Source: Candidatus Azambacteria bacterium (GTDB taxonomy: Bacteria > Patescibacteriota > Minisyncoccia > UBA10092). From it: DNA of 64,000 nucleotides. The stretch's first letter is position 1; every line of letters begins with the position of its first letter. The notes beneath the pieces were generated by a model. That model was given only the letters and a program-made list of their open reading frames with translations. It made no database searches and was not told the origin of the DNA. Positions 40,761 to 64,000 of the stretch are shown piece after piece. Position numbers and translations under genes: made by a program. The DNA lies in NCBI GenBank assembly GCA_003455995.1, contig DMPO01000001.1, positions 14,945 to 78,944 on the forward strand, given 5' to 3'.

Positions 40761-42011
40761 TTATTTATTTTTTATCAGATTAACTAAATTATCTTTTACT
40801 CGGTTCAAAACCATTTCATTGGTGGCCTCTATATTGAGGCGGAGCAATGGTTCGGTGTTTGAAGAACGCAGGTTCAGCCAGAAATCCGGAGTTTTAACGG
40901 TTAATCCATCCAACCAATCAATATCATAGCCCTCAAAATTTTTAGCGACTTTTTTTATCACTTCTTCCGGATTATCAACGGGGAAATTCATCTCCGGAAT
41001 GGAAATATATTTATTAAATTCCGATGTCAAAACCGATAAATTTTTATTTTCGTTACTTAAGATATCAAGCATTGTTAGAAAGCTAATAATTCCCGAATCG
41101 GCGTAAAAGTTTTTTTTGAAATAATAATGACCCGAGGCCTCAATGCCAAAAAGCCCGCCCACTTCTTTCAGTCGCCTTTCAATGAAGGAATGCCCCGCCC
41201 TTTCACGGATTCCTTCGCCGCCGCAGGCGGCGATGGTGTCGGAAACAATTTTACCCGTCGTCGCGCTGTAAATAATTTTTCCGTTATGATTTTTCTTTAA
41301 AAAATATTTTGCCATCAGCGCGCCAATAATTGATGGATTTATTGCCACCCCCCTTTCGTCCGTAAAATTGATTCGATCGCCGTCGCTGTCAAAAGCGCAG
41401 CCAAAAGCATAATTTTCGGCGTTTATTTCCACCGGCAGTTTTTCAAGAACCGATTTGAAAATTTTTCCGACGGCATCCGATTTCATATCAACAGCAATTT
41501 TCATCGGTCTTATTTTTTCCATATCAACGGCTCCCAAAACATGTTTGACATATTCATCCTTTATATCTTCCACGATGATTTTTCCTTTTTCTCGCGAAAC
41601 GCCCGACTTTTCTTCATTGATTATTATTTCCAGATCTTTGGCGGGAAAAAAATCAACGGCGCTTTTCATTAATTTGAAACCGTTCCACTCATTTGAATTG
41701 TGAGAGGCCGTAATCATAACGGCGGGAAGATTAAAATGCCCCGAAGCGAAATAAACCATATCAACCGTGGCAAGGCCGATGTCCAAAATATTAATTCCCT
41801 CGCTTACCGCCCCTTCTATAAACGATTCTTTTAAAATTGGCGAAGAAGCTCGTGAATCGTGTCCGACAACCATTTTTGAAGACGCGATATTATTTTCTTT
41901 CAAATACACGGCAAAAGCGCGCCCGATTTCATGGGCAGTTTCTTCATTTAGATCGCTCGGATAAATCCCGCGAATATCGTAAGCCCTAAAAATTGACGGA
42001 TTGATAAACAT
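40761..42011 (-). CDS. Phosphohexomutase (phosphomannomutase / phosphoglucomutase / phosphoglucosamine mutase family)
   Basis: Active-site TASHNSNEWNGFK (catalytic Ser) and the metal-binding FDSDGDR-type loop (AFDSDGDR). Confidence 0.88.
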   Translation of the reverse strand: MFINPSIFRAYDIRGIYPSDLNEETAHEIGRAFAVYLKENNIASSKMVVGHDSRASSPILKESFIEGAVSEGINILDIGLATVDMVYFASGHFNLPAVMITASHNSNEWNGFKLMKSAVDFFPAKDLEIIINEEKSGVSREKGKIIVEDIKDEYVKHVLGAVDMEKIRPMKIAVDMKSDAVGKIFKSVLEKLPVEINAENYAFGCAFDSDGDRINFTDERGVAINPSIIGALMAKYFLKKNHNGKIIYSATTGKIVSDTIAACGGEGIRERAGHSFIERRLKEVGGLFGIEASGHYYFKKNFYADSGIISFLTMLDILSNENKNLSVLTSEFNKYISIPEMNFPVDNPEEVIKKVAKNFEGYDIDWLDGLTVKTPDFWLNLRSSNTEPLLRLNIEATNEMVLNRVKDNLVNLIKNK

Positions 42012-42237
42012 GAACTTACTATTAAGTATAACACATTTTCATGTCTCTTAAGATAGGTATAGTTGGGATACAATCAGACATGATACCAGTGGCTCAAGCG
42101 TTAAATTAATACCTTTTGTTTTCATTATAAAACTACCGCCCCCGATGCAGAGAGGAGTAGATTATGGCTTTAGACCGGCTAAAATGGCCCCTACAAGCCC
42201 GCTTCAAGCTTCTGCCTGATGAATGACATTAGAATAA

Positions 42238-43362: not shown

Positions 43363-43399
43363 AGTTTAATTTACTTATCACAACTCTTTAATTTTTGTT

Positions 43400-44722: not shown

Positions 44723-44734
44723 AGAATCGTATTC

Positions 44735-45250: not shown

Positions 45251-45419
45251 TTTTTTAATTTGCCGTTCTTTAATTATAATTTTTTCCTCCTTAGTTTTAA
45301 TTTTTGTATCTATCGCATCAAGTAGACTGCCCTTACCAAGTAGTTGGTCACACAGTTTATCAAGCCAATCTTGTTTTTTATTTTCCATACTTTTTATTGA
45401 TAACCCCCCCAAATAAGTA

Positions 45420-45503
45420 AACAAAAAGCCCGTGTCCACTAGGTCTTGCGACCCAATATTTCTTTCGAAATATTGCCCATCGAAGAGTTGTAGAACACGG
45501 GTT
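45420..45503 (-). terminator. Long compound hairpin plus T-tract downstream of the 45672..46391 gene
   Basis: Outer stem ACCCGTGT/ACACGGGC encloses an inner AATATTTC-TTTC-GAAATATT hairpin, followed by TTTTTGTTT on the minus strand. Confidence 0.45.
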
Positions 45504-45671
45504 CTATATCTTCGATGGGTCTTTGTACCATGCCAGTATTGCTACTTGGTTTAGGCCACTTACTTATTAAATTTTATACTTATTACTATATTACAAATTT
45601 TTCTAAAAATCCAATAACAAATAAGCGGAGCTTGCTTCAGTTCTCAGTTAAGGTGTAGTGATTAAAAAAAC

Positions 45672-46391: not shown

Positions 46392-46459
46392 AGTTTAAAA
46401 ATTAAAGCTCCTCGAACTTTGATTCTATCTTAACTATATTCGCACCCACTTTAAGCCCG

Positions 46460-48112
46460 CTACTTTCCGGCTTGTAAATCATTGAAAATTTCTTTGAAAA
46501 TCAGGAATCGTTTGTGTAAAAAAGTATTAAATCTACTTCGTATCTTATTTAATTTCTTCTTCTTCTTTTTTCTTATTAGAAACGGACGGTCAAATTGTTC
46601 CAGGTTTTTCAAATCCTTGAAAGGCAGCAGTTCAGATTTTAAATAGTTGTTAATTTTTTCTATACTTATATTTCCATAAAATTCAATTTCAGATTTAAGC
46701 CATTTAGATGGAACTTCCTTACCTTTGCGGATATTTTGGTCCTTGTTAAGATAATGCAGATTTAATATATTATTTACCTCGCTACCAAGCACCCCCTTCT
46801 TATACAAATCAAATGGATAAAAATGGTCATCCTCCGGACTGTGTTGCTTTGTTTCTACATCTATTCGGTTGGTAGGATTGCCATCAATATAGACCGGATG
46901 CTGTTTCCATAAAGCTAATTTGACGATATTCCTTACAGAAGACCTTCCGGCTTTTATATCTGTTGTATCGAAAAATGATTTCACTATGTCAACTTTCTTT
47001 ATAGTAAGATTTGTTTCTTCTATTGCCAGTCGCTTCATTTCTATAGCATCCGGACCAATATTTCTATTATAACCAGAACCAATATATCTATTAGAAAGAG
47101 ATGCTCTCCAAAACCATTTTTTAAGTTCTGTTTGCTGTTTTGAGGTAGGCTTGTTATTAAAATAAAAGAATATACTTAACACAGTTAACAAAGTCTGAGA
47201 CGGTAGTTCACTTACTGAAATAATTCCATATTCTCCTTTTAGATACTGCATTGCATTAGATACGGCTTTGATACCATCATCGAATATCTTATTGTATTTT
47301 TTAGCATCCGCTTCCTCACGAACGGCTTGAGCAATTTTCTTCAGTGCTTTGATATCTATCTCTATAACACCTTTATCCTTTTTATTACCCATCTGCAACT
47401 GGCAAACAAGGGCGAAAACATGAATAAATGTTACCGTATTTATATCCCGAGTCAGGGATTCTCTGTTATGTCTTTTCCAAACTCTAAGCATTCTTTCAAA
47501 ATCAGTATGCTTGGTCCATGTTTCGGACAAGAAAATTGATTCCGTTGCTATCCTTGTCCCTGCTTGATTTATTCTTTCAAAAATCTCAATAGCATTTTTA
47601 TAATTATCTAAAGAAATAATAACCACCGGAAACATATAAGATCTCCCGATTAGATTAAGCAGTTTCTTAAATTTAATATCTCTAAAAACACGTTTATCAT
47701 AATCAAGAAAATATCCCTCCTCATTTTTATTAATGAAAAATTTATCAAAATCTATCAATTGGCTATAGCGAGTATCGCAAATATCATGAAAACTATCCCT
47801 AACTTGATGCTGTGAAAATACCTTTTGCCTTGCCAAATAATAAAGAGATAGAAGCCTTTGCTGACCATCTAATACAAGAAATCTTTTAGCCGGCACGTTA
47901 TCCCCATCAATGGTTCGAGCATCAATTTTTTGACCAGTTTCCCACAATACAAGGCTGCCAATAGGATATTTTTTTCTAAGACTATCGAATAGTTTCTTAA
48001 CTTGGGGAATTTTCCAAACATAACCTCGCTGAAATTCCGGAACGGCTACATGGTTTCTTTCAATAAATGAAATTAGCGTTTTTAGATTAAATTTATATAC
48101 TTTTGTAGACAT
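46460..48112 (-). CDS. DUF262/DUF1524 (GmrSD-like) nuclease
   Basis: N-terminal ParB/DUF262 motifs FQRGYVW and DGQQRL; C-terminal DUF1524/HNH-like region (DDHFYPF ... NILNLHYLNKDQNIRKGKEVPSKW). Confidence 0.65.
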   Translation of the reverse strand: MSTKVYKFNLKTLISFIERNHVAVPEFQRGYVWKIPQVKKLFDSLRKKYPIGSLVLWETGQKIDARTIDGDNVPAKRFLVLDGQQRLLSLYYLARQKVFSQHQVRDSFHDICDTRYSQLIDFDKFFINKNEEGYFLDYDKRVFRDIKFKKLLNLIGRSYMFPVVIISLDNYKNAIEIFERINQAGTRIATESIFLSETWTKHTDFERMLRVWKRHNRESLTRDINTVTFIHVFALVCQLQMGNKKDKGVIEIDIKALKKIAQAVREEADAKKYNKIFDDGIKAVSNAMQYLKGEYGIISVSELPSQTLLTVLSIFFYFNNKPTSKQQTELKKWFWRASLSNRYIGSGYNRNIGPDAIEMKRLAIEETNLTIKKVDIVKSFFDTTDIKAGRSSVRNIVKLALWKQHPVYIDGNPTNRIDVETKQHSPEDDHFYPFDLYKKGVLGSEVNNILNLHYLNKDQNIRKGKEVPSKWLKSEIEFYGNISIEKINNYLKSELLPFKDLKNLEQFDRPFLIRKKKKKKLNKIRSRFNTFLHKRFLIFKEIFNDLQAGK

Positions 48113-48131
48113 TTTTTATCAAGCAATGATA

Positions 48132-50930
48132 TTACCATTCAAACATCTCAACTATGTTTTCAATGGCGTTTTTAATGCGATCAATGATTCCCTGTCGTTC
48201 TTTGATTCGAGGCGCCTCCGGTAATAAATCGACAATATCTTGTCCGTTAGGCGGTTTTTGCGCGTACAGGTATTCACCGATCAGATGTTCAAACTTTTCA
48301 ATCGGGATATTTTCAGTTTGAGCGATAATCTTCAAACTCTCGGAACGTTCACTTGCCCAAAATTCACTAAACGCTTTTTCAACATCGTCTGACCTGCCAA
48401 TTTTGGGCAAATTTTCTTCAATGAATTTCTTGATTAAATCTTTCTTCTTACGAAGTTTGACATCCCTATCAAATAGACGCAAAATTTCTTCCGTTTTCTT
48501 TTTACGGACCACATCGGAGCTAATATTTTTAAGACCGGCAATGAGTTGGATAATATAGTCAAAGTTAATAATATCCCGAACGGTCAGTTCAATTTCAAAG
48601 TCAATTTGGTCCAAAATAGATTCAATTTCGCTATTATTATTTTTACGATCCTCATAAACATCCAAGTATTTGCTTTGATAATCATAAAATTCCTGCTCCG
48701 TTATTCCAATGTCATTAAAAGAAAATTCTGCGAATGTCTCGAGCGACGATTTGATACGAAGTAAATCACGAAATATCTTTACAAATTCCGCTTTTTCTTC
48801 TTCTCCTTGCAACCCATCGACACTAGAAACAGTCGGCACCTTTTCTCGTAATTCCGCCAGTTTATCTTCAAATTCTTTTTTCTGGACTTCATACGGTTTT
48901 TTAAACACAACATCTTTGGCGTTTTCATCACCAAAAAGCGCCAATGCTTTATCGGTTGCTTCTTTTAAGTTTCTAAATGAAACAATATTGCCGTGAGGTT
49001 TGTCAGAATTTAAAAGCCGATTTGTTCGTGAATATGCTTGAATCAATCCGTGATATCGCAAATTTTTATCCACATACAGCGTATTGAGCCGTGGACTATC
49101 AAACCCCGTCAAAAACATATTAACCACCAAAACGAGATCGACTTCCTTATTCTTTATTCTCTTCTGCAAATCCCGGTAATAATCATAGAAACGATCAGTT
49201 GAAAAGTTTGTTGAATATCGTTTGTTGTAATCCTTTATACAGTCCTCTAAGTAATCTCTTGAATGTTGATTGACAACTGCCCCCTCGTCGTCAAAGACAT
49301 CAACATCAAGTATGTCGGAGCTCTCGTCTTCGTTCGCTTTATAGGTAAAAATTGTCGCAATAGAAAAATCTTCCGCTTTCTTATCCTTGAGTAATTTATA
49401 ATACTTTTTTAATACCTCAATAGATGAAACGGCAAATAATGCATTAAACTTTCCCTGTTTTGTTTTTCGTTTCCAGTCCGCCAGTATATAATCCGTAATT
49501 TTATTCAACCGGTCGGCGCTTTCAAGCACTTCTTGGGTATTAATGCCTTCAATCATAACATCGGCAAAAATATCTGCGTCTAATGTATCCGGATCTTTTT
49601 GCGTGTATTTCCCAACATATTCAACAGCAAAACCAAGCACATTATTATCTGAAATCGCATCGGTAATAATATACTTATGCAAACATTCGCCAAAGACATC
49701 AACGGTCGTTACTCCTCCCACATTATTATCAGCAAAGATTGGCGTTCCGGTGAAGCCAAACAATTGAGCTTTTTTAAAGAATCCTTTTATCCGAGCATGT
49801 GTCTGCCCAAATTGACTTCTGTGACATTCATCAAAAATCACAACCACTTTTTCATTGGCTAAATATTCAAAATGCTTGAGATGAGATTCTCTCCCGATAG
49901 CGATATCAAGCTTTTGAATTGTAGTAACGATAAGTTTTCTATTTTTATCTTCAAGTTGCTTCACAAGACTATGCGTGTTATCAGTGCCATCCACCGCCCC
50001 TTCGGAAAAGGAGTTGAACTCTTTTGTTGTTTGAATATCCAAGTCCTTTCTATCCACCACAAAAAGCACCTTTTTAACTTCAGGCATTCGTGAAAGTACT
50101 TGACTTGTTTTGTATGAAGTTAATGTTTTGCCTGATCCTGTGGTGTGCCAAATATAGCCATTTTTATCAGATTCACGCACTCGGTCCTCAATCGCTCTTA
50201 CTGCATAATATTGATATGGGCGAAGGGTCATCGGGATTTGCGTTGCTTCAGCCAATACAATATATTCAGCAATCATTTCTGATAGAGCGCATTTTTCCAG
50301 AAATGCATCGGCAAACTCATCTATCTTGGTAATTTTTCTATTCTTCACATCCGTCCAGTAGAAAGTTTGTTCAAATGATTGTTTTGGATTATTTGAAAAA
50401 TATTTTGTATTTACTCCGTTTGAAATCACAAATATTTGGATATATTCAAACAGTGTTCCCGTAAATGAGTGTTTGTGATAGCGCTGGATTTGGTTAAAGG
50501 CCTCTTTGAGTTCCATACCTCGGCGCTTAAGTTCAATTTGCACCAATGGCAAGCCATTCACCAACAAAGTCACGTCATAGCGATTTTCATAGCGTCCGGC
50601 TTGAGTAATTTGCTGCGCAACTTGATATTCATTTTTGCACCACTGATCCATATTGAAAAACCGCACATAGAAAATGCTCTCATCATCACGAGTCAGGACA
50701 AGGCGATCACGCAAGGTCTTGGCTTTTTGAAAACGGTCGCTTTTGTTTATGTGATTCAATATGCGAATAAACTCATCATCAGAAAAAGTTGTTTGATTGA
50801 ATTTTTCAAGCTGTCCTCGCAGGTTCGCAACCATCGCAGCGGCGTCTTCCAAGACAACCGAAGAAAAACCCAACCGCCCAAGCTGTTCAATCAAGGTCTT
50901 TTCAAGTTGTTGCTCACTTTGGTGGGTCAT
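48132..50930 (-). CDS. hsdR: Type I restriction enzyme R subunit (HsdR)
   Basis: SF2 helicase motifs TGSGKT and DECHRS, an N-terminal PD-(D/E)xK nuclease region and the HsdR C-terminal domain; 932 aa. Confidence 0.9.
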
Positions 50931-50931
50931 A

Positions 50932-52800
50932 TTATTTTTTTATAAACGGTTGAATCGATCCATTAATAAAACTTTTCAACATAAGAGACCTTGGTGTTTT
51001 TTTGTTTTCAAACTTTTTTTCTATTTCTTTAATCCCACTTTTTAACCTTTTCTTTAATTTTTTGAGAAATGGGATTTCCTGCTCAATGCCATTTATTTGA
51101 GTCCTTAAATTTTCATACCTATCTTTAAAAGTTTTCTGTAATATATGTAACATAATTGGCCTACCTTTGATTAATATTTTTGCTATTTCTTCTACATCAA
51201 AATATTGAAAATAAGCATCTCCATTTCCTGTATTATGCAAAAAATTATAATTTATTAATAAATCTAAGCTCTGTTCAGTGTTTTTTTCTCCCTTTAAGAT
51301 AGGCATCAATTCGTTTTTAATCTTTTCTTTGATGAATATTTCTTTATGGCTCTTTATCTTTTCATTAATTAATTCAATCAATTTTCCCCACTCTTCATTT
51401 TCCATTCCAAAATATTCAAGCCCATAAGTACTTTTTCTCCAACTAAAACCCCACTCCTGTTCGCATAACTTTAAAGGAAATTTCTTTTCTTTAATTAATA
51501 ACTCGATGTATTCTTTGCCCTCTTTAAAAATATCTTTTTTGTCTTTCTTCAATAAACCTTCTTTAGAAAAATTCAAAAAAATTCCAAAAACATGTAACAC
51601 CACATAAAAATCATCATAGTCTCTATTTTCCCACTTTTTTTGTACATCTTTTAAGTTACTAAAAAAATCCTCATCGCTGTGATCATAGCGATGCCAAAGT
51701 TTTTGCCATGATTCTTTGTTTACACCAATAAGATTTTCAAAATTACCAACTAATTCTCCATTTTCTTTTTCTGATAAATTAATTCCTTGTAAAATTTTTC
51801 CTAATATATTCACATCAAAACAAGTGACCCAATGAGACAGTCCTTCGTCATATTTATCTAAAAAGTGGTCCTTATTTTTGTCATCTAATCCTTTAAAAAA
51901 TTGGGGATACTTTTTAAAAAAATCTTCACTTTTTATATTACCTCTCTTGTATTCAATAAAAATGACAACAAATTCATAGAACATTTTTTCAAACAATTCA
52001 ACATTTTCTTTTACCTTGCTTGAAAAACTTTTAAAGAAATACTCAAAGCTAGATAACGCTTGCTGTATTAATCTTAAATTATCATATTTAGACTGGGTAA
52101 AGATTTTTGAAAGTAATTTTTTTATATTTTCAGAATAATTTATTAAATCATCGCCCATCACCCCCTCGGTAAACAAAGTTATTGCCTCCTCCTGTGAAGG
52201 ATTAATGCAAAATTCTTTCCCAATCAATTTTTCTTTAATTTTTCTATATTTATCACCACTCTTAGACTCTAGAAGATCTTCTTCATTCGCAACTAAAATA
52301 ACCTTTTGATTTTTAAATTCAACGAAATTATTTATATACCCGAGTAATTTATCAATTTCAATATTACATCTTTCAAGATCATCAAAAACAAAAACACAGC
52401 CCTTACTTTTCTTTAAGAAAATATCCACCAACAACTCATCAGCGTCAGAAGGAACCCAGTCTCTAATTTTTGGTATTTTTTTAATGTTTCTGAGTATGCT
52501 ACTTGCAAAAATATTATATTTTTCTGGGACAAAAGGAATCAGTTCAATGATTATTTTTTCTTTTATCCCGTTAAAACTATCAACACCATACAAGCTAATA
52601 TGTAAAATCTTTTTTTCTTTTTTTATATCAATGTAGTTCTTAATAAAATAAGTTTTCCCGCAACCCCACTTTCCTTTTAATAAGACAGCAAATGGAAGAT
52701 TATTTTCGAAATCACAATAATAATCCAAATATTCTTCTATATGTTTGTTTATTATCATTGTATTTATACAAACAACCCCTGCATCAAGCCCCTTTTCCAT
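50932..52800 (-). CDS. KAP-family P-loop NTPase embedded in the hsd operon
   Basis: Walker [14 protein letters not shown] and Walker [11 protein letters not shown] fit the KAP pattern. Overlaps the hsdS 3' end by 37 nt (or starts at the alternative M15, 52758) and ends 2 nt before hsdR. Confidence 0.65.
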
Positions 52801-53984
52801 TGCTCGGCTTGGACGATTTGTTGTTGTTTTGATTCTATTATTTTATCTATTGAAGTTAAAAATCCCGCAATTTTTTGCTGTTCTAAGAATAAGGGGACCG
52901 GCACAAAAAAATTCTTTACAATTTTAGCATTCAAGTTTCCTTGCGTGCCGGTTTCAATGAAGCTATGCACTAACTTTTTATAAAAAAATAAATAATAATA
53001 TAAATATTCTAAATTAATAATTTTACTATTTGGTATTAAATTGATCATTGCCTGAGATGTTGCAAGAGGTATTTGGTTTATAGCAACAAACCCGACGCTT
53101 GCATACATTGAATATATGAGTGAACCCTTTGGCACAATCCATGCTGATGAATTTTTTAGACCCTCTTCACTTATACTTTTCTCAGTTTGCAATATATATT
53201 TTCCACTCTTTGTCATGTCGGCAATCGAAAGAAATGGGATACTGCCATCATAGTATTCTTTCTTTGTTGAGGTTGGCGTTCCTCCACTCTTTGCCTTATC
53301 ACAAATTTCCCCCAGTTTCTTCTCCTCCCACTTCGGGAACTCCTTTCCATCCTCATCCTTGAAACGGATTTCTTGTGCAAAGATTTTTTGCATCATTCCT
53401 TTTTTGTAAGATTCAAAAGATTCTTTTTGCGCCTGCAGATTTTCAATCCACGCATCCGTTGATCTTAAAAAATCAGAAATTTTTTGTTGCTCTGGAATGG
53501 ATGGAAAAATAACCGGGCATCTTAAAACTTCATCTTTTCTTAAGTTTGTTTGACTTACGCCATTATCAAATTTTAAAAAATATTTATTTCGATTTAATAT
53601 TCTAATCAAAAAGGGACTTACAATTTCTTTTGATTTAATTCCACCAATTCTTTGATTGAGTGTATAAGTATTATCCTCATTAACTAAAAAGCACTTACTT
53701 ATTGCCTTACCATTCGGAATATCACTCATAACAATAGCAATGTCGTCTTTTTTAAGTGAGGATATCTGTTTATCTGAATATTTTTTAACCTCGCCATTTT
53801 GTGAAATAAATTTTGAATTTACAACAATATATTTTCCATATTCTGAAATATCTTGCTCGTGAGCTTTTCCATTCCAAAATTTAGAAACCTCCCCCAACTT
53901 ATTCTCCTCCCACACACCAGAAAAACCTGGAAAGCGAAGTTTCGGTATTTTTTTAGTTTCTAATTGTACAGCTTTACTTGGCAT
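52764..53984 (-). CDS. hsdS: Type I restriction-modification specificity subunit (HsdS)
   Basis: Two target-recognition domains separated and followed by conserved coiled-coil repeats (...LPVPLFLEQQKIA ... IPEQQKISDFL...). Confidence 0.85.
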   Translation of the reverse strand: MPSKAVQLETKKIPKLRFPGFSGVWEENKLGEVSKFWNGKAHEQDISEYGKYIVVNSKFISQNGEVKKYSDKQISSLKKDDIAIVMSDIPNGKAISKCFLVNEDNTYTLNQRIGGIKSKEIVSPFLIRILNRNKYFLKFDNGVSQTNLRKDEVLRCPVIFPSIPEQQKISDFLRSTDAWIENLQAQKESFESYKKGMMQKIFAQEIRFKDEDGKEFPKWEEKKLGEICDKAKSGGTPTSTKKEYYDGSIPFLSIADMTKSGKYILQTEKSISEEGLKNSSAWIVPKGSLIYSMYASVGFVAINQIPLATSQAMINLIPNSKIINLEYLYYYLFFYKKLVHSFIETGTQGNLNAKIVKNFFVPVPLFLEQQKIAGFLTSIDKIIESKQQQIVQAEQWKRGLMQGLFV

Positions 53985-53986
53985 AA

Positions 53987-55564
53987 CTAAAATGGTTTAT
54001 TGATTTTCAATTCATTGCAAAATTTTTCAATCTTGTTTTTCAGACCGAGCTCGTTTGCGTGCAATTCTTTCAACCTCTTTGAAACCTCTTTAATATCCAC
54101 TGCTACTTCTTCCTCAACTGTGTCCACATAGCGTGGGATATTTAGATTGTATTCATTTTCTTTGATTTCTTTTATGCTTGCTCTGTGTGAATATTTTTCT
54201 ATTTCTTTGCGACTTTTATAGGTATTAAAAATCTTCTCAATATTTTCATTGGTGAGTTTGTTTTTATTACCAATCTTTTCAAAGCCTTTGGAGGCATCTA
54301 TAAACAGAATGTCTTCATCATCTTTGCGACATTTTTTAAAAATAAGAACTGTTGCTGGAATAGCTGCCCCATAAAAAAGATTCGAAGGAAGTCCAATGAC
54401 TGCATCAAGATAATTTTGCTTTTCTATGATGTATTTTCTAATATGGCCTTCGGCGCCGGACCGGAAAAGCGCCCCATGAGGCAATACAATAGCCATAGTG
54501 CCATTATCGCCGAGGTGATAGAGCATATGAGTTACAAAGGCATAATCAGCTTTATTTTTTGGAGCTAATCGCCCATATTGAGAAAATCGATCATCATGCG
54601 CTAGTTGTGGGTCGCTATTGCCTTTCCACTTTGAGGAAAAAGGTGGATTGGCGACGATTGCCTCCGCCTTAAGGTCTGCGTGCATATCCTCTCTAAGGGT
54701 ATCGCCTTGGCGTATTGAAAAACGATCAAAGCGCACTCCGTGCAAAATCATATTCATTCGGGCAAGGTTGTAGGTCGTCGGGTTGAGCTCTTGTCCATAA
54801 TATTTTACAACTTCGGTAAATTCGCCAAGACGAAGTAAAAGCGAACCAGAACCACAAGTTGCGTCATATGCTGATTTGATGCGTTTTTTATCTACAGAAA
54901 CAATTTGAGCAAGCAAGCGTGATACTTGAGCAGGAGTATAGAACTCACCACCTTTTTTACCAGCGCCGGCAGCAAATTCTCCAATCAAATATTCATAAGC
55001 ATCGCCAAGAAGATCGCTTTTGGCGTCTTCAAGCTTAAAATCAATACCATTAAGCAATGTGAGCACTTCAACAACAACTTCATTCTTTTCACTCTCACGA
55101 GAACCAAGTTTCGTGGAAGTCAGGTCCACATCATCAAACAGTCCTTTGAAGTCATCCTCACTTGCGGTTCCTGCCGAGGTTTTTTCAATAGCATTAAGAA
55201 TATTTTTAAGATCCTCCAGAATAAAAGTTTTTTGATCTTTTATTTCACCTTTTCCCTTTTTGACTAAATATGAAAAAAGCTGTGACGGTCTTAAGAAAAA
55301 ACCAAGTTCATCAATGCAAGCCTTTTCTATATGCTTCAAATAGTCCTTCCCCTCCTTTGTGTTTTCTTTTATTTCAGCAAAAGTGATTTTTTCACGAGCA
55401 AGAAGTTTTTCATTTACATATCGCTCAAGTTTTTCAGAAAGATATTTATAAAAAATAAAGCCAAGAATATAGTTTTTATATTCATCGGCATTCATTTTGC
55501 CTCGCAGCACATTAGCCACGCCCCATAACTGTCTCTCTAATATCCTTTTTTGTTCTTCTGACAT
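53987..55564 (-). CDS. hsdM: Type I restriction-modification DNA methyltransferase (HsdM, N6-adenine)
   Basis: HsdM N-terminal domain, an FxGxG-like SAM motif (DATCGSGSLL) and catalytic NPPF (VANPPFSSKW). Confidence 0.92.
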   Translation of the reverse strand: MSEEQKRILERQLWGVANVLRGKMNADEYKNYILGFIFYKYLSEKLERYVNEKLLAREKITFAEIKENTKEGKDYLKHIEKACIDELGFFLRPSQLFSYLVKKGKGEIKDQKTFILEDLKNILNAIEKTSAGTASEDDFKGLFDDVDLTSTKLGSRESEKNEVVVEVLTLLNGIDFKLEDAKSDLLGDAYEYLIGEFAAGAGKKGGEFYTPAQVSRLLAQIVSVDKKRIKSAYDATCGSGSLLLRLGEFTEVVKYYGQELNPTTYNLARMNMILHGVRFDRFSIRQGDTLREDMHADLKAEAIVANPPFSSKWKGNSDPQLAHDDRFSQYGRLAPKNKADYAFVTHMLYHLGDNGTMAIVLPHGALFRSGAEGHIRKYIIEKQNYLDAVIGLPSNLFYGAAIPATVLIFKKCRKDDEDILFIDASKGFEKIGNKNKLTNENIEKIFNTYKSRKEIEKYSHRASIKEIKENEYNLNIPRYVDTVEEEVAVDIKEVSKRLKELHANELGLKNKIEKFCNELKINKPF

Positions 55565-55568
55565 AAAA

Positions 55569-55751
55569 TTATTTTTGTTTGAGTAATTTTAATATATCAC
55601 CTCTTCTATACCGCCTGTCTTTCCTTGTACCATAGCGGATTGCCTTTAAAAACCCCGAATTATCCCATTTTCGCAGGGTATTTGGATGAAGAGCTAGAAT
55701 TGAGCAAGCTTCAGCCAGAGTTATAATTTGATCTTTTTTTGTGTCGGTCAT
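55569..55751 (-). CDS. Excisionase/MerR-type HTH (HTH_17-like) small DNA-binding protein
   Basis: LTLAEACSILALHPNTLRKWDNSGFLKAIRYG resembles the excisionase-family HTH; 60 aa. A paralogous gene lies at 58979-59155. Confidence 0.55.
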   Translation of the reverse strand: MTDTKKDQIITLAEACSILALHPNTLRKWDNSGFLKAIRYGTRKDRRYRRGDILKLLKQK

Positions 55752-55805
55752 ATATAAATCGCTTACTTACCATCACTTTACACCATCCAATAATTGAAAT
55801 CAATA

Positions 55806-55846
55806 AAAAACGGCGATCCCGTCTGTAGGACCGCCGTTTTTGTGCG
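55806..55846. terminator. Bidirectional terminator AAAAAACGGCG-N16-CGCCGTTTTT
   Basis: A perfect 7-bp GC stem flanked by A6 and T5. Confidence 0.5.
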
Positions 55847-55849
55847 ACA

Positions 55850-56407
55850 CTATCTTCTTAAGGATTGAATGGCTTCAGAGGCCTCACTTCTGGTGAGCCC
55901 ATCAACTTGTGATTCCCACCGGCTCTTTTCATCCTCGTCTGTAATATTCGTGTGTACAAGCTCAAGTAGATAGCTTTTCTGCCGGTCGGTTATAGAATCG
56001 TCTCGTTCAATCCCCGCCCCTTCATATACATTTTCAAGCCGCAAAATGTCTAAGCTCTTGCACGCTGAATTGGCTGCTGACATTAAAGCGCCGTTCAAAC
56101 AGGAGAAAATAATGCGCTCTATACCGCTATTGATTCTCGAGATAATCGATGAGCCGTGACCTATGCCCACAGGCCGGCCATCCTTGCTTAAGATGCATTG
56201 TACCGCAATAAGGCCAGGAGTCTTTAAGGTTGACAGGGTTCCAGTATCTTCGGAGAAAGTGGCGCTAAGATTATAGGTTCCACAAAGCTTTCTTACTTCC
56301 TGGCGGATTGGATGACTCTCGGACTGCGTGTCGAGCGTCTTCTCCATCGCCACCCTTACCGGATGTGGTTGAAAAGTAGCTATCGCCTGACTTTTGTAAT
56401 TGTTCAT
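55850..56407 (-). CDS. Hypothetical protein
   Basis: A 185-aa ORF with no recognisable motif; co-directional with the downstream small genes. Confidence 0.4.
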   Translation of the reverse strand: MNNYKSQAIATFQPHPVRVAMEKTLDTQSESHPIRQEVRKLCGTYNLSATFSEDTGTLSTLKTPGLIAVQCILSKDGRPVGIGHGSSIISRINSGIERIIFSCLNGALMSAANSACKSLDILRLENVYEGAGIERDDSITDRQKSYLLELVHTNITDEDEKSRWESQVDGLTRSEASEAIQSLRR

Positions 56408-56412
56408 GGTTT

Positions 56413-56610
56413 TTAGATTTTGTTAATTGTGATGAAATTGTCCGAATATTCGACCTCAACTTTACTGCCGACGGTAAACCCGGATTCGAGAAGGAACCTA
56501 TTAGCAATTCTAAGCATCGGCTTTTGCTTATCATCGCCGGGAGCCTCTAATATGGTCATTTCTCTTTTCGGACCATAACTTAATCTCATGATTAATTTAG
56601 CTTCGTTCAT
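56413..56610 (-). CDS. SymE/AbrB-fold (SpoVT-AbrB swapped-hairpin) small protein, toxin- or DNA-binding-like
   Basis: PMLRIANRFLLESGFTVGSKVEVEYSDNFITI matches the SymE pattern (l-lkG-WLeeaGF--G--v-V-v--g-ivI); 65 aa. Confidence 0.4.
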   Translation of the reverse strand: MNEAKLIMRLSYGPKREMTILEAPGDDKQKPMLRIANRFLLESGFTVGSKVEVEYSDNFITINKI

Positions 56611-56951
56611 AATTTTCGTTTTTCTACTTGTTTACAATAGAAAAGGCAAACACCTCTTTTGATTTTCTTAATAATGTTTCCTACTGGGTCTTTTACCTCG
56701 ACGAAAGTAATTGACCGAATGGCTTTTTCTCCCTTTTTTACTCGATACCCAAGCTTCCACCATTGGGCGAAAGTAAGGGCATTATTATACGGGTCATACT
56801 TCTTCACTTCTTCATGACCCCAGCGCTTTTCTATCTGTTTGGCTACCAGGTCATAGGTAACCGAAGACCCTGTATAGGGAGATATACGGGGAGGAACACT
56901 CATAATTTCATTTACACTTTGCATATACGGCTTGATTATCACTAACGCCAA
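56607..56951 (-). CDS. Hypothetical protein
   Basis: A 114-aa ORF whose stop overlaps the SymE-like gene start (4-nt overlap). Confidence 0.4.
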   Translation of the reverse strand: MALVIIKPYMQSVNEIMSVPPRISPYTGSSVTYDLVAKQIEKRWGHEEVKKYDPYNNALTFAQWWKLGYRVKKGEKAIRSITFVEVKDPVGNIIKKIKRGVCLFYCKQVEKRKL

Positions 56952-57145
56952 AATACGCTCGACTAGGCATATTAATGAAGAATTTGGCTAATTAATTATT
57001 TTTCTTCATCAATAATCAAGTGGTGTGAATTAAGGTTTGGGGGGTGATTCGATAGTTTAAAATAGAGGCTATGGATGTTATAAAAGGGAACCCGGAGACG
57101 GTTTTTCTTGATGGGGGGGCATTTTTGGATTCTTTTTGGGCTTTA

Positions 57146-57335
57146 AAAATCAACTGGCCTAAAAATTTTTGCGCAGATTTTAGAAAAAAGAGGCACAGAT
57201 AAGCCAAAATAATATTTTCTCGCAGAGAAAATATTATTAAAGTCACGGCGTGACTTTATTGACTTTATTAATTTTAACTTTTTCTAATTTTTCAAACTTT
57301 CCTTAAAAATCACTTGGCCTAAAAAAATTTTGCGA
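57146..57335. repeat. ~30-bp imperfect direct repeats (AAAAATCAACTGGCCTAAAAATTTTTGCG / AAAAATCACTTGGCCTAAAAAAATTTTGCG) plus palindromes, in the non-coding region of the island
   Basis: Direct-repeat copies at 57146-57175 and 57305-57335. Perfect palindromes AATATTTTCTC-GCA-GAGAAAATATT (57218-57240) and AGTCACG-G-CGTGACT (57242-57258). Confidence 0.55.
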
Positions 57336-57479
57336 AAAATTGAGGTTAAAGGGTGGGCAAGATAAAAAACACGGCTATAAAAGTCGTGTTTTGGCTTATT
57401 TATGCCAAATTGGTTGACTTCCGTAGAAATTTTTGACCTTTAGTATAATTTAATAAGAATCAAAGTTGTAATTCGATTT

Positions 57480-57960
57480 TGGTTCCTAACTTTTAAAACA
57501 AATGGTGAGCGGCCGGAGATAATAAAGCCCGGTACGTTGCAAAGGCAGCAATGCCAATGCGGGGAGATACTGGCAGGGTGTGGGGGCGATCGTTAACCCG
57601 CCTGTTGGAGGCCATTAAAATAACGACTCTCTCTGATGCTCTCTAGACAGCATTCTAGAGTCCTTATGCGGACAGTGCCTGATACGAATCGGACATTGTC
57701 GACATGAGGTTCAGATAGGGATGCAAACGCCTACGTAGTCCAACAGGTGAGCGTGGGTATCGCATACCAAAGCGGCGGGGCCTGAGGCAAAACTAATTGG
57801 TTCGGTGGCTGTAATGCCATGCGGATGAGCTAGGGGTACCCTGTACGACAGTCTGCCTGACGTGTACACCGAGAGACAGCGGGATTATGTACACAGGACC
57901 AAATGACGTATCCAAATAGGACGGCATTCTCCCCCCTCTTGTCCAAATCGGTAGCAGGGT
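57480..57960. other. GC-rich (~55%) ORF-free structured region, candidate ncRNA of unknown class
   Basis: No ORF of 60 aa or more in ~760 nt. Numerous stems (CTCTAGA-N6-TCTAGAG; GTGTACA-N19-TGTACAC; CCGGAG...; GGGGCGATCG...). Sharp compositional contrast with the AT-rich flanks. Confidence 0.4.
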
Positions 57961-58007
57961 AATTCACAAATCAATAACTGAAGTTTTTAATAGTAATATT
58001 TAAATCA

Positions 58008-58553
58008 ATGAACAATCATTACATGATTGAAGAATGTTTTTTTATAACGCCGAGAAATGTCGGGGGAAGGTTTGGCCATGTTAGGAAGTTAGGAATCAAT
58101 GAGCTCGAAAACCGCAGTGATATTTCTTATTGGTTTGACGATATGTCTGAGCCAACATGCCTATTTGTCAGCGTAAATGGCAATGAGCCGCAGAAATTTG
58201 ATTGGGAGCCGGTTGATATTACTTTTGGAGAAACAGCCTATATTCGCTGTCATTGCGGTTATAGAGCAAGAAAACTGTATCTACCTCCTAATGGCAAAGA
58301 ATTTAAATGCCGGAAGTGTCATAAATTACAATATCAGCTCACCAAATTCAACCGCCACTCAATTGCGGGCAGGTCTCTATATAAAATGAATCGTCTTCAA
58401 AAACTCGCCGATAGCAGGGCGAATATAGGTAGAATTTTATACAATGGCAATTATACAAAAAAGTTCACACGATTTCTTGGATTGTGCGACCGGGCTGGCT
58501 TGGAAAGCATTGTGCGGGGTGCTAAAGATCTAAAAACACTAATGAATGGATAG
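58008..58553 (+). CDS. Hypothetical protein with Cys4 zinc-ribbon-like motif
   Basis: CHCGYRARKLY...FKCRKCH; 181 aa. Confidence 0.4.
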   Translation: MNNHYMIEECFFITPRNVGGRFGHVRKLGINELENRSDISYWFDDMSEPTCLFVSVNGNEPQKFDWEPVDITFGETAYIRCHCGYRARKLYLPPNGKEFKCRKCHKLQYQLTKFNRHSIAGRSLYKMNRLQKLADSRANIGRILYNGNYTKKFTRFLGLCDRAGLESIVRGAKDLKTLMNG

Positions 58554-58709
58554 GTTATTTTAACGAAGTCAGAATATCCCCTATGTCTGTTTTAAGACAA
58601 ATTGTTCGCTACTGCCGTGGCCCCGTTAGGATAGAAGCCGGTTATTGTCTTAAATTGTATTCCTAAAGATGCTCAATTTTACCTTTTGGTACTGTAGTAT
58701 ACTAAGAAT

Positions 58710-58955
58710 ATGACTACAAAAGAAAACAAAATAAAGCTGGCGAGTATCATTTCGGTGTTTGTGCATGACGATATTGGCATTTTGGAAGCGTACACTGCAA
58801 CATCATGTTCATTTGTCGTCATTGAGGGTATCAGTTTTGGTTATCAATTCATTGAATCTGAAAATAGTGAAACTAATTTAAACAGGGCTTTTGACATTCT
58901 TTTTGACGAAACACTCAAGCGTTTAAAATCAAAGGGCATCCATTTGTCACTATAG
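58710..58955 (+). CDS. Hypothetical small protein
   Basis: An 81-aa ORF with no recognisable motif. Confidence 0.3.
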   Translation: MTTKENKIKLASIISVFVHDDIGILEAYTATSCSFVVIEGISFGYQFIESENSETNLNRAFDILFDETLKRLKSKGIHLSL

Positions 58956-58978
58956 ACAATTAAGTATAAAATAAACAT

Positions 58979-59155
58979 ATGGAATTTTTTACAAGAAAAG
59001 AAGTCGCAGAATTTTTTAGAGTTAACCCTAGAACAGTGGAGCGTTGGTTGAGAAATGGAAAACTAAAGGGCTATAAACTTGGCGAAGGCAAGACAGCGCC
59101 ATGGCGCATCGATATGGTGGAAATAAAAAAGTTTTTAGCAAAGAATAAAGTATAA
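58979..59155 (+). CDS. Excisionase-type HTH (Xis/HTH_17-like) protein, 58 aa, below the ORF-track size cutoff
   Basis: Manual translation MEFFTRKEVAEFFRVNPRTVERWLRNGKLKGYKLGEGKTAPWRIDMVEIKKFLAKNKV. Ends 4 nt before the serine recombinase ATG. Confidence 0.55.
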   Translation: MEFFTRKEVAEFFRVNPRTVERWLRNGKLKGYKLGEGKTAPWRIDMVEIKKFLAKNKV

Positions 59156-59159
59156 ACAT

Positions 59160-60806
59160 ATGGCCGATATCAACAACACTGAAAAACATTGGCTAATCGC
59201 CTTTTATGGTAGGGTCTCAACATCGCTGCAGGAGGAACAAAAAACAATTGAGACTCAACTCATGGCAATGAATGATTTCGCCGATAAGAAATTCGGTAAA
59301 GGTAACTATACTGTAGTCAAAGAATATCTCGATGAAGGTTGGAGCGGAGACAATATTGTAAGACCTAGTCTTGACCAGCTTCGGGTTGATGCAAAGAAAA
59401 AGATTTGGGACGCAGTAATAATTTATGACCCGGACCGATTGGCTCGCAGATATTCATTGCAAGAGTTGGTAATGGACGAAATAAAAGATGTCGGGATTGA
59501 AGTTATTTTTGTTACCGTATCTACTCCCAAAAACATAGAGGATAAGATCCTTTATGGGGTACGGGGACTGTTCGCTGAATATGAGCGAGCAAAAATATCG
59601 GAACGTTTCCGCCTTGGGAAACTTCTTAAGGTTAGAAATGGCAATATTCTTACAACAGAGGCTCTTTATGGATATGATTACATTCGCAATGACAAGATAA
59701 ATAAAAAGCCCGGCTACTATGTGATAAATGAAGAAGAAGCAAGGGTTGTAAGAATGATATTTGCTTGGGTTGGCGAAGAAGGATTAACGCTCCGGCAAGT
59801 AGTGAGACGATTGCAAGAAATGGAGATAAAACCAAGAAAAAGTAAAAGGGGGGTTTGGAATACAAGCACTTTATCTACTCTACTAAGACACAAAGCGTAT
59901 ATAGGAATGGCTCATTGGGGTAGTTCCTATGCGGTAGTTCCAAAGAATCCTACAAATAAGGAAAAATATCGGCAAGTAAAAAAGAGTAGTCGAAAAATCA
60001 AACCGGAAACAGAATGGATTGCGTCGAACATCCCAGTGCCACCTATCATTGGGGAAGAACTATTTATGAAAGTGCGAGAACAATTAAAAACCAATTTTGC
60101 GCTGTGCCAACGGAATACCAAAAATGAATATCTACTTGGCGGTAAAATATTTTGTTCTTGCGGCACAAAGAGATGTGGCGAAGGTCCTCAACATGGCAAA
60201 CATCTTTACTATCGTTGCAGTAATAGAATCTATAACTTCCCTCTGTCCCCTACATGCAATGAGAAAGGAATTAATGCGAGAATCGCTGATAAATTAGTAT
60301 GGCAAAAAATCAAAGAGTTTATGACTTCTCCGAAATTATTATCACGACAAATCAATCGACGGAAAGATATCCGGAAAAATAAAACTCTACCATTAATTGA
60401 AAATATAGGAATAGCGGAAAAAGAACTTGCGAAACTGAAAGCGCAGGAAGACCGCTACATCAAGGCATATGGAAACGGCGCATTAACTATTGAACAATTA
60501 AAAGAGCAAGTAACATCAATAAAAAGTCATATGGCAACATTTGAATCGCAAATAAGAAAGGTCAATCAAGAAAAAAGCCGGATTGATACTGCTCCAACAC
60601 CAACTGAAAAAGAAATAAAAATATTTACAGATGAGGCAGCCAAAACTATTAATGACTTGAATTTTGAGACAAAACGGACAATCATTAGAAATACTGTAGG
60701 AAGAATTATTGGCACACAGCGACAGCTACAGGTGTCTGGCGAAATACCATTAACACTAAATTATGTCACATACAAAACTAACTATCGGTATAGTTGGCCT
60801 GCCTAA
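59160..60806 (+). CDS. Large serine recombinase (resolvase/invertase N-terminal domain + recombinase domain + zinc ribbon)
   Basis: Catalytic Ser context FYGRVSTSLQEEQ, resolvase-like N-terminus, recombinase domain, Cys cluster (CSCGTKRCGEG...YYRCSNR) and a coiled-coil C-terminus; 548 aa. Confidence 0.88.
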   Translation: MADINNTEKHWLIAFYGRVSTSLQEEQKTIETQLMAMNDFADKKFGKGNYTVVKEYLDEGWSGDNIVRPSLDQLRVDAKKKIWDAVIIYDPDRLARRYSLQELVMDEIKDVGIEVIFVTVSTPKNIEDKILYGVRGLFAEYERAKISERFRLGKLLKVRNGNILTTEALYGYDYIRNDKINKKPGYYVINEEEARVVRMIFAWVGEEGLTLRQVVRRLQEMEIKPRKSKRGVWNTSTLSTLLRHKAYIGMAHWGSSYAVVPKNPTNKEKYRQVKKSSRKIKPETEWIASNIPVPPIIGEELFMKVREQLKTNFALCQRNTKNEYLLGGKIFCSCGTKRCGEGPQHGKHLYYRCSNRIYNFPLSPTCNEKGINARIADKLVWQKIKEFMTSPKLLSRQINRRKDIRKNKTLPLIENIGIAEKELAKLKAQEDRYIKAYGNGALTIEQLKEQVTSIKSHMATFESQIRKVNQEKSRIDTAPTPTEKEIKIFTDEAAKTINDLNFETKRTIIRNTVGRIIGTQRQLQVSGEIPLTLNYVTYKTNYRYSWPA

Positions 60807-61794
60807 TGTGGGTAAATCCACTTTATTTAAAGCGCTGACCAGAGAAAAAGTTAATATCGCCAATTTTCCCTTCGCCACCATCGATCCCAATGTTGGGATT
60901 GTTAAAGTTCCCGATCAACGGCTTATCCGACTTGCTGAAATGTCGAAGTCAAAAAAAATCGTTCCGGCGGCAATAGAATTTGTCGATATTGCCGGCTTGG
61001 TCAAAGGCGCCCATGAAGGCGCGGGGCTTGGCAATCAATTTTTGGCGCGCATCAGAGAAGTGGATGTTATTGTTGAAGTGGTGAGGGATTTTGAAAACCC
61101 GGACATTATTCATGTTGAAGAAACCGTTAATCCGTCGCGGGATATTGAAACAATCCAACTGGAACTGGTCATGGCCGATCTGCAAACGCTGAATAAGCAT
61201 CTGGCCACGATTGAAAAAGATGTCAGAGCGGGCAAAAAATACGCCCAAGAAGAAAAGATAGTTTTGGAAAAAATAAAAACGGTTTTAGAGGCCGGAGAAG
61301 GAGCCACAAAAGCAAAACTTTCCGAATCAGAATTATTGTTGATAAAAAATTTACATTTTATGACTCTAAAGCCGTTTTTATTTGTTTATAATATTTCAAA
61401 AAATATCGATAATGGAAATCGACTGGCAATTAATTTGCGATTGGAGGCGGAAATAGCGGAAATGAGCGAAGAGGAAGCCAAAGAATTTGAAAATGAATCG
61501 CGTTTGCCGGAATTGATAAAAAAGGCCTATGATTTATTGGATTTAATTACCTATTTCACCACCGGAGAAGATGAGACCCGCGGCTGGACTATTAGAGCCG
61601 GATGGACGGCGCCGCAGGCCGGTTCGGCAATCCATAACGATTTTGAACAAAAATTTATCAAGGCCGAAGTTATAAATTGGCAAAAATTGCTGGAGTGCGG
61701 TTCTTGGGCCAATGCCCGTCAAAAGGGATTCTTACGAACGGAAGGAAAGGACTATGTGGTCGAAGACGGCGATGTCATAGAATTCAAAATTTAA
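60763..61794 (+). CDS. ychF: Ribosome-binding ATPase YchF (Obg-family GTPase)
   Basis: G1 GIVGLPNVGKSTLF, the TGS-like C-terminal domain, and ...GEDETRGWTIRAGWTAPQAAG.IH.DFE...; 343 aa. Confidence 0.92.
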   Translation: MSHTKLTIGIVGLPNVGKSTLFKALTREKVNIANFPFATIDPNVGIVKVPDQRLIRLAEMSKSKKIVPAAIEFVDIAGLVKGAHEGAGLGNQFLARIREVDVIVEVVRDFENPDIIHVEETVNPSRDIETIQLELVMADLQTLNKHLATIEKDVRAGKKYAQEEKIVLEKIKTVLEAGEGATKAKLSESELLLIKNLHFMTLKPFLFVYNISKNIDNGNRLAINLRLEAEIAEMSEEEAKEFENESRLPELIKKAYDLLDLITYFTTGEDETRGWTIRAGWTAPQAGSAIHNDFEQKFIKAEVINWQKLLECGSWANARQKGFLRTEGKDYVVEDGDVIEFKI

Positions 61795-61832
61795 ATTGAC
61801 AGGTTGCCGCGCTCTGTGATAAATTATCACCG

Positions 61833-62722
<890 letters not shown>

Positions 62723-62723
62723 T

Positions 62724-62957
62724 ATGTATAACAATCCCATCAATCTAAAAAATCAAAAAACCACCTGTTATTTCTGCGCTCAGAACTTGCAGGAAATTGA
62801 TTACAAAAGCGCGGAGCTTTTGCGTCGTTTTATTTCGGCGCAGGCAAAAATTATGCCCAGAAAACGCAGTCATCTATGCGCCAAACATCAGCGCCGTTTA
62901 GCCATGGCCATCAAACGCGCCCGTTTCATGGCGCTCCTCCCCTTCACCGCCAGATAA
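62724..62957 (+). CDS. rpsR: 30S ribosomal protein S18
   Basis: CYFCAQNLQEIDYK... KHQRRLAMAIKRARFMALLPF matches S18. Confidence 0.9.
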   Translation: MYNNPINLKNQKTTCYFCAQNLQEIDYKSAELLRRFISAQAKIMPRKRSHLCAKHQRRLAMAIKRARFMALLPFTAR

Positions 62958-63971
62958 TTATACTACCGAAGATTTTTTCACTTCTTGAGTCAGTTTTTTG
63001 GTTAGATCTTGGTTCTCTTTCAGATATTGGCGGGCGGATTCAAGGCCTTGGCCGAGTTTTTGGTCGGCGTAGTTTATCCAGGTGCCGGATTTCGATAAAA
63101 CGCCGGATTTCAAGCCGCAATTTATTATATCCCCTTCTTTTGATATCCCCTCATTATACATGATGTCAAATTCGGCAATTTTAAACGGCGCCGCCACTTT
63201 GTTTTTGACCACTTTAACCGTAACCCTGTTGCCGACTATATCTTCTCCTTTTTTAATTTGAGCGTTTCGCCGAACATCGAGCCGCACCGAAGAATAAAAT
63301 TTAAGCGCCATGCCGCCCGGCTGGGTTTCCGGATTGCCGAAAAACACGCCGATTTTCATTCTTAATTGATTTATAAAAATAATGGCCGTATTGCTTTTAG
63401 CGGCGATGGCGTTTAATTTTCTCAACGCCTGCGACATCAGCCGCGCCTGAAGCCCCATGTGCGAATCGCCCATTTCTCCTTCAATTTCGGCTCGGGGCGT
63501 CAAAGCGGCCACCGAATCGACAACAACGACATCGCAAGCGTTCGATCTTACCAAGCTCTCCACAATCTCCAACGCTTGCTCGCCATTATCCGGCTGGGAA
63601 ATTAAAAGATCTTCAATCTTAACGCCGATTTTCTTGGCATATTCAGGATCCAAGGCGTGTTCGGCATCCACAAAAGCGGTTTGCCCGCCTCTTTTTTGCG
63701 CTTCGGCGATAATGTGCAACGCCAGTGTGGTTTTTCCGGATGATTCCGGGCCGTAAATCTCGATAATTCTGCCTTTGGGTATGCCGCCAACGCCCAGCGC
63801 CATATCCAAAGAAAGCGACCCCGTTGGGATAGCGTCAACATTAACTTTGGCGACATCGCCGAGTTTCATTATGGAGCCCTCGCCGAATCTTTCTTTCAAT
63901 CCTTTAACGGCATCGTCTAAGGCCTTATTTTTAATATCGATATTTGCCTCTTTTTCTTTTTGTTTTACCAT
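62958..63971 (-). CDS. recA: Recombinase RecA
   Basis: Walker [14 protein letters not shown]1/L2 loops and ...[12 protein letters not shown]...; 337 aa. Confidence 0.97.
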
Positions 63972-64000
63972 ATATTTTTATTGATTTCTAAAGACCTGCC

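Follow-up and report, generated by a model that had tools for sequence, protein, structure and literature searches.

The stretch analysed here, 64,000 nt of the contig DMPO01000001.1 from Candidatus Azambacteria, a tiny groundwater bacterium of the Parcubacteria (the window), contains a PGM/phosphomannomutase-family gene (PGM; 40761..42011, minus strand; Pfam PGM_PMM I–IV) and, further to the right, the gene ychF (60763..61794, plus strand; 343 amino acids; Pfam MMR_HSR1 and YchF-GTPase_C). Between them lies a block of genes whose right end is formed by a small HTH_17 gene (58979..59155, plus strand) and a gene for a large serine recombinase (LSR; 59160..60806, plus strand). All open reading frames (ORFs) of the original prediction, a note made from the letters of the window, were found in the ORF list where it had placed them, and the LSR and ychF genes overlap by exactly the 44 nt it had given (60763–60806). 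The region 42058–60788 is very probably an integrative defence island that was set by the LSR into the first codons of ychF, with the attachment site of the element, attP, lying within the LSR gene itself.

In eight related species (L013–L019 and L026), the PGM gene lies directly beside ychF, with a gap of ~30 bp and no island. These relatives came from a ychF-based scan of species-representative genomes, and their ychF is 74–86% identical to that of the window. Four near-identical strains without the island (L047–L050) were reached via 340-amino-acid members, starting MSLKIGIVG, of the 90% identity cluster of the window ychF, which depart from the predicted native protein at one or a few residues; their flanks are 99.2–99.8% identical to the window. 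L047 aligns to window positions 41168–42057 and then resumes at 60784–64000. Because PGM adjoins ychF in the eight species and the four strains, the 18,731 bp at 42058–60788 were recognized as an insertion. The original prediction had placed an element at or next to the 5′ end of ychF and had proposed a comparison of this upstream region with island-free relatives. Empty sites were found, both attachment sites could be defined, and the insertion point is precisely inside ancestral ychF codon 6 (now codon 9). The relatives do not carry the same genes at the same position without boundaries, as would be expected of a fixed region, and the restriction-modification (R-M) and KAP cargo that had been suspected of mobility does sit on the insertion missing from the sister strains and the eight related species.

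The left junction, attL (42041..42081), consists of a B arm at 42041–42055 (ATG TCT CTT AAG ATA, the ancestral ychF start), GG at 42056–42057, and a P′ arm at 42058–42081 that ends in GACAT. In full it reads ATGTCTCTTAAGATA-GG-TATAGTTGGGATACAATCAGACAT. The opening 17 bases correspond to the native start of ychF (M S L K I G), and the empty-site strains L047 and L048 carry exactly the same B arm. At the right junction, attR (60763..60812), a P arm at 60763–60786 (starting ATGTC) is followed by GG at 60787–60788 and by a B′ arm at 60789–60812 that holds the ychF codons for G-I-V-G-L-P-N-V-G, giving ATGTCACATACAAAACTAACTATC-GG-TATAGTTGGCCTGCCTAATGTGGG. The attP reconstructed from the two P arms, ATGTCACATACAAAACTAACTATC-GG-TATAGTTGGGATACAATCAGACAT, is ~50 bp long (junction sequence AACTATCGGTATAGTTGGGATACAATC), and the attB predicted for precise excision is AAGATAGGTATAGTTGGCCTGCC. 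Imperfect inverted repeats around a central dinucleotide had been named as a feature to look for at the island ends, and attP is such a repeat, with its dyad about the central GG. Centred on GG, the window attP has 15 of 25 dyad matches, and no other centre within the repeat gives more than 7 (P ~6e-4 per centre). The motif ATGTC-N19-GG-N19-GACAT is the consensus across 14 attP sites of the family, in which 10–19 of 24 dyad positions match. No long direct or inverted repeats were found at the island ends, and only the 11-bp GGTATAGTTGG is common to both. In five independent complete islands, namely that of the window and four in metagenome contigs with the same layout (L084, L087, L100, and L107), attL and attR share essentially only GG. 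Because the two sites share GG and the best dyad is centred there, the crossover was assigned to the GG that opens the Gly codon of ychF G-I-V-G, immediately before the GLPNVGKS P-loop.

In its integrated form the LSR has 548 amino acids and was identified from Pfam, alignment, and fold matches. Its domains are Resolvase (PF00239, E 4.8e-25), Recombinase (PF07508, E 9e-20), and Zn_ribbon_recom (PF13408, E 5e-7). An alignment of the recombinases of the family, with the window protein as the reference sequence, has invariant catalytic residues Y16, R18, S20, R68, R93, and R96 and invariant zinc-ribbon residues C332, C334, C353, and C366. The closest sequence match in the PDB is TP901-1, over the catalytic domain only (E 1.4e-7). 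The AlphaFold2 (AF2) model of the protein has long helices at 373–499, as in a zinc ribbon with an inserted coiled coil, and matches full-length serine integrase–att complexes, including those of Bxb1 and PhiC31 (Foldseek E 1e-18 to 1e-15). The catalytic domain, the zinc ribbon/coiled coil, and a short shared att core with a dyad attP are the features by which a serine integrase is recognized, and all of them are present here; conservative recombination of attP with attB, with a 2-nt stagger, is the predicted activity of the enzyme.

Residues 1–543 of the LSR are encoded by the island, and the last five (544–548) and the termination codon come from the P-loop codons of the host ychF, read in a different frame. 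The crossover GG forms positions 2–3 of the codon for Arg543 (CGG); then come the host codons for YSWPA and a TAA that lies across the P-loop Pro-Asn codons. When the right-end LSR gene is joined to the left end of the island, a 596-amino-acid ORF results, with YSWDTIRHDTSGSSVKLIPFVFIIKLPPPMQRGVDYGFRPAKMAPTSPLQASA as its last 53 residues and with attP ~53 codons before its stop. The detached 3′ segment (53 codons and a stop; 42058..42219, plus strand) is an open frame that matches the C termini of full-length homologs. Integration swaps this conserved 53-residue tail for five host-encoded residues, and the tail segment remains intact 18.7 kb away. We attribute the overlap between the LSR and ychF genes to the position of attP within the recombinase ORF. 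Overlaps can also arise by ordinary gene packing in a reduced genome, unrelated to any attachment site, and short ORF overlaps are frequent in the ORF list of the window. Such an origin is extremely improbable here, because the alignment with the empty site breaks exactly within the overlap and because this overlap is met again in hosts with ychF identities of only 43–85%. Its length, which ranges from ~43 to 379 nt, also takes discrete values, as the various stop codons available in the P-loop codons would predict.

The insertion also recoded the start of ychF. The window gene starts MSHTKLTIGIVG, and its first eight codons (MSHTKLTI) are island-derived; the native form has 340 amino acids and starts MSLKI. 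Island-free relatives align to the window ychF from residue 6 only, and island-bearing ones align from residue 1. The 24-bp P arm supplies an ATG start and eight surrogate ychF codons and is also read as LSR codons ~535–543. Judged by its sequence, this single arm is a predicted recombinase binding site, a set of recombinase codons, and a surrogate ychF start. A promoter-like site of the ancestral ychF (41993..42022, plus strand; TTGACG-18-TACTAT, a consensus match only) now faces the left end of the island, and the old ychF promoter would now read into the island. A second promoter-like site (58944..58972, plus strand; TTGTCA-17-TAAAAT, 10/12 matches) lies upstream of the string formed by the HTH_17 and recombinase genes and possibly ychF, in a region where such sites are no commoner than expected by chance. 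ychF is probably now expressed from island signals.

Integration thus splits the LSR gene, leaving codons 1–543 at the right end of the island and the 53 tail codons at the left end. The first five ychF codons and the promoter are replaced by eight island codons, with ychF kept intact behind the HTH_17 and LSR genes, and the left end of the island now lies in front of the old ychF promoter and start. If the island were excised at the same GG, both the 596-amino-acid LSR and the native ychF would be restored.

The same arrangement was seen well beyond the window. Among 80 metagenome loci gathered with the alignment of recombinases, ychF overlaps the 3′ end of the LSR gene in 53, a full-length tail is found with no adjacent ychF in 21, and a contig end cuts the gene in six. 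The 120 nearest database homologs include ~95 that end in ychF P-loop codons (−1 frame) and ~20 that end in the full tail. Full-length genes keep the attP motif intact, and the surrogate start of ychF can be read in them in the second frame; most of these homologs have conjugation or mobilisation genes as neighbours (ArdC, TraG/TrwB-like, relaxase, primase). One lineage was found in both states: the recombinase P0059 is full length, and P0100 is integrated and followed by ychF. Their cores are 84% identical, and the two diverge exactly after the Arg (nGG) codon. P0059 is carried on L158, a contig of 8,445 bp with a terminal overlap of 16 bp and an HTH_17 ORF that closes across its ends, which together indicate a circular element of 8,429 bp. 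The circle holds HTH_17, the full-length LSR, and an intact attP. No terminal overlaps were found in 13 other full-length contigs, and the only LSR relatives in IMG/VR viral contigs were distant ones (32% identity or less). Replication-type genes were observed in L158 (HTH_36 and an IstB/DnaC-like ATPase) and in another relative of the island, L164 (904–2973; primase-polymerase/AAA_25 helicase-like, 689 amino acids), which suggests that free forms may persist and replicate as small episomes.

Several observations weigh against integration by the LSR as reconstructed above, the first of them at the target site itself. The attB of the empty-site strains reads GG-CATCGTC-GG, and both window junctions read GG-TATAGTT-GG. 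The window differs from the empty strains by three synonymous changes at 60789, 60792, and 60795 (compare 42058–42066), after which 510 bases are identical. Reconstruction of a single crossover with the empty-site allele fails at every possible dinucleotide, and, because the attB patch differs, the empty-site strains did not arise by excision from the window genotype. Over its first nine nucleotides, the window P′ arm differs from the consensus of the family and is the same as the host B′ arm. The patch may go back to a polymorphism already present in attB, which could be under selection, or to a short tract of conversion. Further points concern the free state. The exact 596-amino-acid LSR and the exact predicted native ychF are missing from the protein collection, the attP junction has no match in IMG/VR viral contigs, and no excised circle or excision product of the window island was found. 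Most full-length homologs form clades of their own in contexts like those of integrative and conjugative elements and are not simply excised twins of integrated ones. The island-bearing genotype dominates, being present in 120–136 sample blocks, compared with a few contigs that have the empty site, so the window copy may be effectively fixed.

Taken further, the island could be a fixed, immobile remnant, inserted in a one-way event in which truncation on integration inactivated the LSR, with the intact tail explained by a recent insertion. The lack of a circle or excision product and the mismatch at the attB patch fit this explanation, as does the presence of the island in all 24 long contigs read with the ychF or LSR allele of the window. 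We nevertheless consider it unlikely. The tail is open and conserved in five of five reconstructed islands, whose LSRs are 50–60% identical elsewhere, and the LSR cores are intact in 53 integrated loci, which suggests selection via repeated mobility. The catalytic and zinc-binding residues of the LSR are likewise intact, and the circular relative L158 exists. The anatomy of an element integrated through an attP in its own recombinase gene (junctions, GG, split gene, tail conservation, recurrence, and circular relative) is well supported.

The conserved tail contains a KLIPFxFxIKLPPP strand. In the AF2 model a hairpin at 513–531 is followed by a disordered att-encoded linker and then by a confident β-strand at 559–568. 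The exchange of tails may change the activity or direction of the recombinase, for example by stabilising the integrated state during ychF transcription through the LSR gene. A more specific and tentative hypothesis, to which we give less than even weight, is that the C-terminal swap is a built-in state switch: the 596-amino-acid enzyme, made from the circle only, would integrate, and the tail-less form, made solely from the integrated state and co-transcribed with ychF, would be silenced or would be turned to excision together with HTH_17. Under this hypothesis, the synonymous differences in the attB patch would be the mark of selection that favoured or opposed capture at the host site. The swap might instead be a neutral by-product of where attP lies, with a dispensable tail and an enzyme that behaves alike in both states. 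The host-encoded endings vary freely, as the range of overlap lengths shows, which implies that the integrated form tolerates any ending, and most of the tail is predicted by AF2 to be disordered. We find a neutral swap possible but doubtful, because the sequence from the IPFxFxIKLPPP motif onward is kept across the divergent clades and includes the confident strand, and because a dispensable tail would be expected to degenerate at the distant end of the islands.

The HTH_17 gene that ends 4 nt before the LSR gene encodes a Xis/MerR-like protein of 58 amino acids (PF12728, E 2.3e-12; PHROG excisionase/regulator families). It had been described as unannotated, which holds for four public assemblies of the genome (L001–L004); in four others the gene is called (L005, L006, L011, and L012). 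Of the 50 integrated relatives whose sequence extends far enough upstream, 35 have a homolog immediately before the LSR gene, as does L158; of 21 LSRs with a full-length tail, only one is preceded by it. Matches in the PDB are weak (BldC, 1.5e-4; Pukovnik Xis gp37, 0.3). As a small winged-helix/MerR-like protein encoded beside the recombinase, it has the form expected of a recombination directionality factor; to our knowledge, the directionality factors of serine integrases share no common sequence family. The gene is a candidate directionality factor or operon regulator. In the first role its product would be needed for recombination of attL with attR and would inhibit that of attP with attB.

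A second HTH_17 gene (55569..55751, minus strand; 60 amino acids; PF12728, mad1-like) lies 4 nt upstream of hsdM. Homologs that are 78–80% identical are found 4 nt upstream of three R-M-type operons in other genomes of the candidate phyla radiation (CPR). Operons of the subfamily (L159–L163) are of type I, type ISP-like, and SNF2/methylase/ResIII composition, and the 60-amino-acid protein is 70–90% conserved across CPR genomes and matches PADLOC mad1. Because its homologs head R-M-type operons and because of the mad1 match, we regard the second HTH_17 as an R-M operon leader or regulator. In the original prediction, the two HTH_17 genes were paralogs and pointed to a directionality factor, a regulator, or both, serving the whole island, and it is true that both match PF12728 and that each precedes the first large gene of its own operon by 4 nt. 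Such a shared role is nonetheless very unlikely. The two proteins are not close (26% identity over 42 amino acids), the subfamily of the second is tied to R-M operons elsewhere, and the first co-occurs with the LSR instead. As a separate observation, the second subfamily might control R-M operons generally in CPR bacteria.

The element resembles the PhiC31, Bxb1, A118/LI, TP901-1, and SPbeta SprA integrases in domain order and in an attP of ~50 bp with an imperfect dyad. It is also like them in that integration is into a gene, a small accessory gene lies beside the integrase gene, and the central dinucleotide is non-palindromic. Unlike in those systems, the window attP lies inside the integrase ORF, so that the gene is split and a conserved tail is swapped, and the P arm encodes a replacement start for the target gene. 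Placement of attP within the integrase gene is a feature of the tyrosine integrases of the Mx8 (IntP/IntX) and SSV1 type, in which the integrated gene is altered (Mx8) or partitioned (SSV1) and excision restores it; these have longer identical cores and tRNA targets. As in that type, the window crossover falls within the integrase ORF and the integrated copy is altered and split, but here the enzyme is a serine recombinase, the core is 2 bp, and the target is a protein-coding start. Because it is not a tyrosine recombinase, the window LSR is an analogue, not a member, of this type. In the integration-dependent immunity of mycobacteriophages such as BPs and Brujita, attP lies inside the repressor gene, and integration, by a tyrosine integrase, alters the C terminus of the repressor and hence its stability, so that the state of integration serves as a switch. 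Integration changes a protein C terminus in both cases; it is the repressor that is cut there and the recombinase here. Tn4451 and Tn4453 are LSR elements in which expression depends on the circular or integrated state, the circle joint forming the promoter of tnpX. In the window the effect is on protein sequence rather than on a promoter, and the target gene is repaired, which is not the case in Tn4451.

ychF has also been met as a neighbour of phage integration. Prophages of the Streptococcus pneumoniae group PPH005 lie immediately upstream of ychF with the integrase gene adjacent and have been suggested to control ychF expression (PMC8637289). That system differs from the window in that the integrase is of the tyrosine type, attB lies in the DUF951/ychF intergenic region, and the coding sequences of ychF and the integrase are left unchanged. 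In the literature searched we found no description of a ychF-targeting serine integrase or of one whose gene is split by the attP of its element, an absence that is not proof of novelty. A large LSR survey demanded that the recombinase gene lie within the element boundaries; surveys that apply such a rule could miss the class with attP in the LSR gene or record the truncated protein only.

As tools for the one-way insertion of DNA, serine integrases are of key importance, and how their direction is controlled is under active study. Here a large family found in nature, whose integration rewrites the C terminus of the enzyme, offers a testable handle on direction, through comparison of the 596- and 548-amino-acid forms. 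The element also illustrates a way to enter a conserved gene without harm, in which one 24-bp arm serves as predicted binding site, integrase codons, and new gene start. Little is known of the mobile elements of CPR bacteria, in which ychF now emerges as a landing site that is used repeatedly and carries defence cargo.

The cargo of the island includes hsdM (53987–55564; PADLOC MTase_I, 1.6e-168), hsdS (52764–53984; Specificity_I, 8e-81), and hsdR (48132–50930; REase_I, 1e-303), each also identified by Pfam, and together they make up the gene set of a type I R-M system. Between hsdS and hsdR lies a KAP-family P-loop NTPase gene (50932–52800, minus strand) that matches the candidate defence family PADLOC PDC-S49 (E 1e-126). 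Pfam and PADLOC further identified a GmrSD-like gene (46460–48112) and an AbiU2 HEPN gene (45672–46391). Other island genes encode a DUF805/zinc-ribbon membrane protein (44735–45439), a protease, and small backbone proteins, including ArdC-N-like and AbrB/SymE-like ones. Searches of Pfam and PHROGs gave no structural matches to phage capsid, terminase, tail, or lysis genes among the island ORFs, and on gene content the island is not a prophage. A LOOT RNA (Rfam RF03000; 75 bits against a gathering threshold of 46) lies at 45441–45557 on the minus strand, directly upstream of the DUF805 gene.

The first island gene past the old ychF promoter and the detached tail is an ORF of 154 amino acids (42238–42702, plus strand) with weak matches to metalloproteases (HExxH type) and no homologs in related islands; in the circular form it would directly follow the recombinase gene. 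A DNA repeat had raised the question of paralogy between this ORF and one of 181 amino acids (58008), which was rejected, as the two share just an 11-residue match. To the left of the 181-amino-acid gene, between it and the ArdC-N-like gene, ~1 kb is free of ORFs (56952–58007). The left part of this stretch is AT-rich, with a perfect 14-nt hairpin at 57208–57238 and 28-nt direct repeats at 57143 and 57303, and the right part (57490–57970) is GC-rich and shows modest folding potential on the plus strand (z-score −2.7). Neither Rfam nor a nucleotide comparison with related islands gave a match to the stretch, which could be an origin (of transfer or otherwise) or encode an RNA of unfamiliar type.

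A second strain-variable site lies near the island, ~9 kb past ychF and beyond the end of the window. Some strains carry a second LSR of 511 amino acids there, downstream of ftsK (L001, 19779–21032; L007, 21382–21647), and strain L002 has an rve-family transposase in its place.

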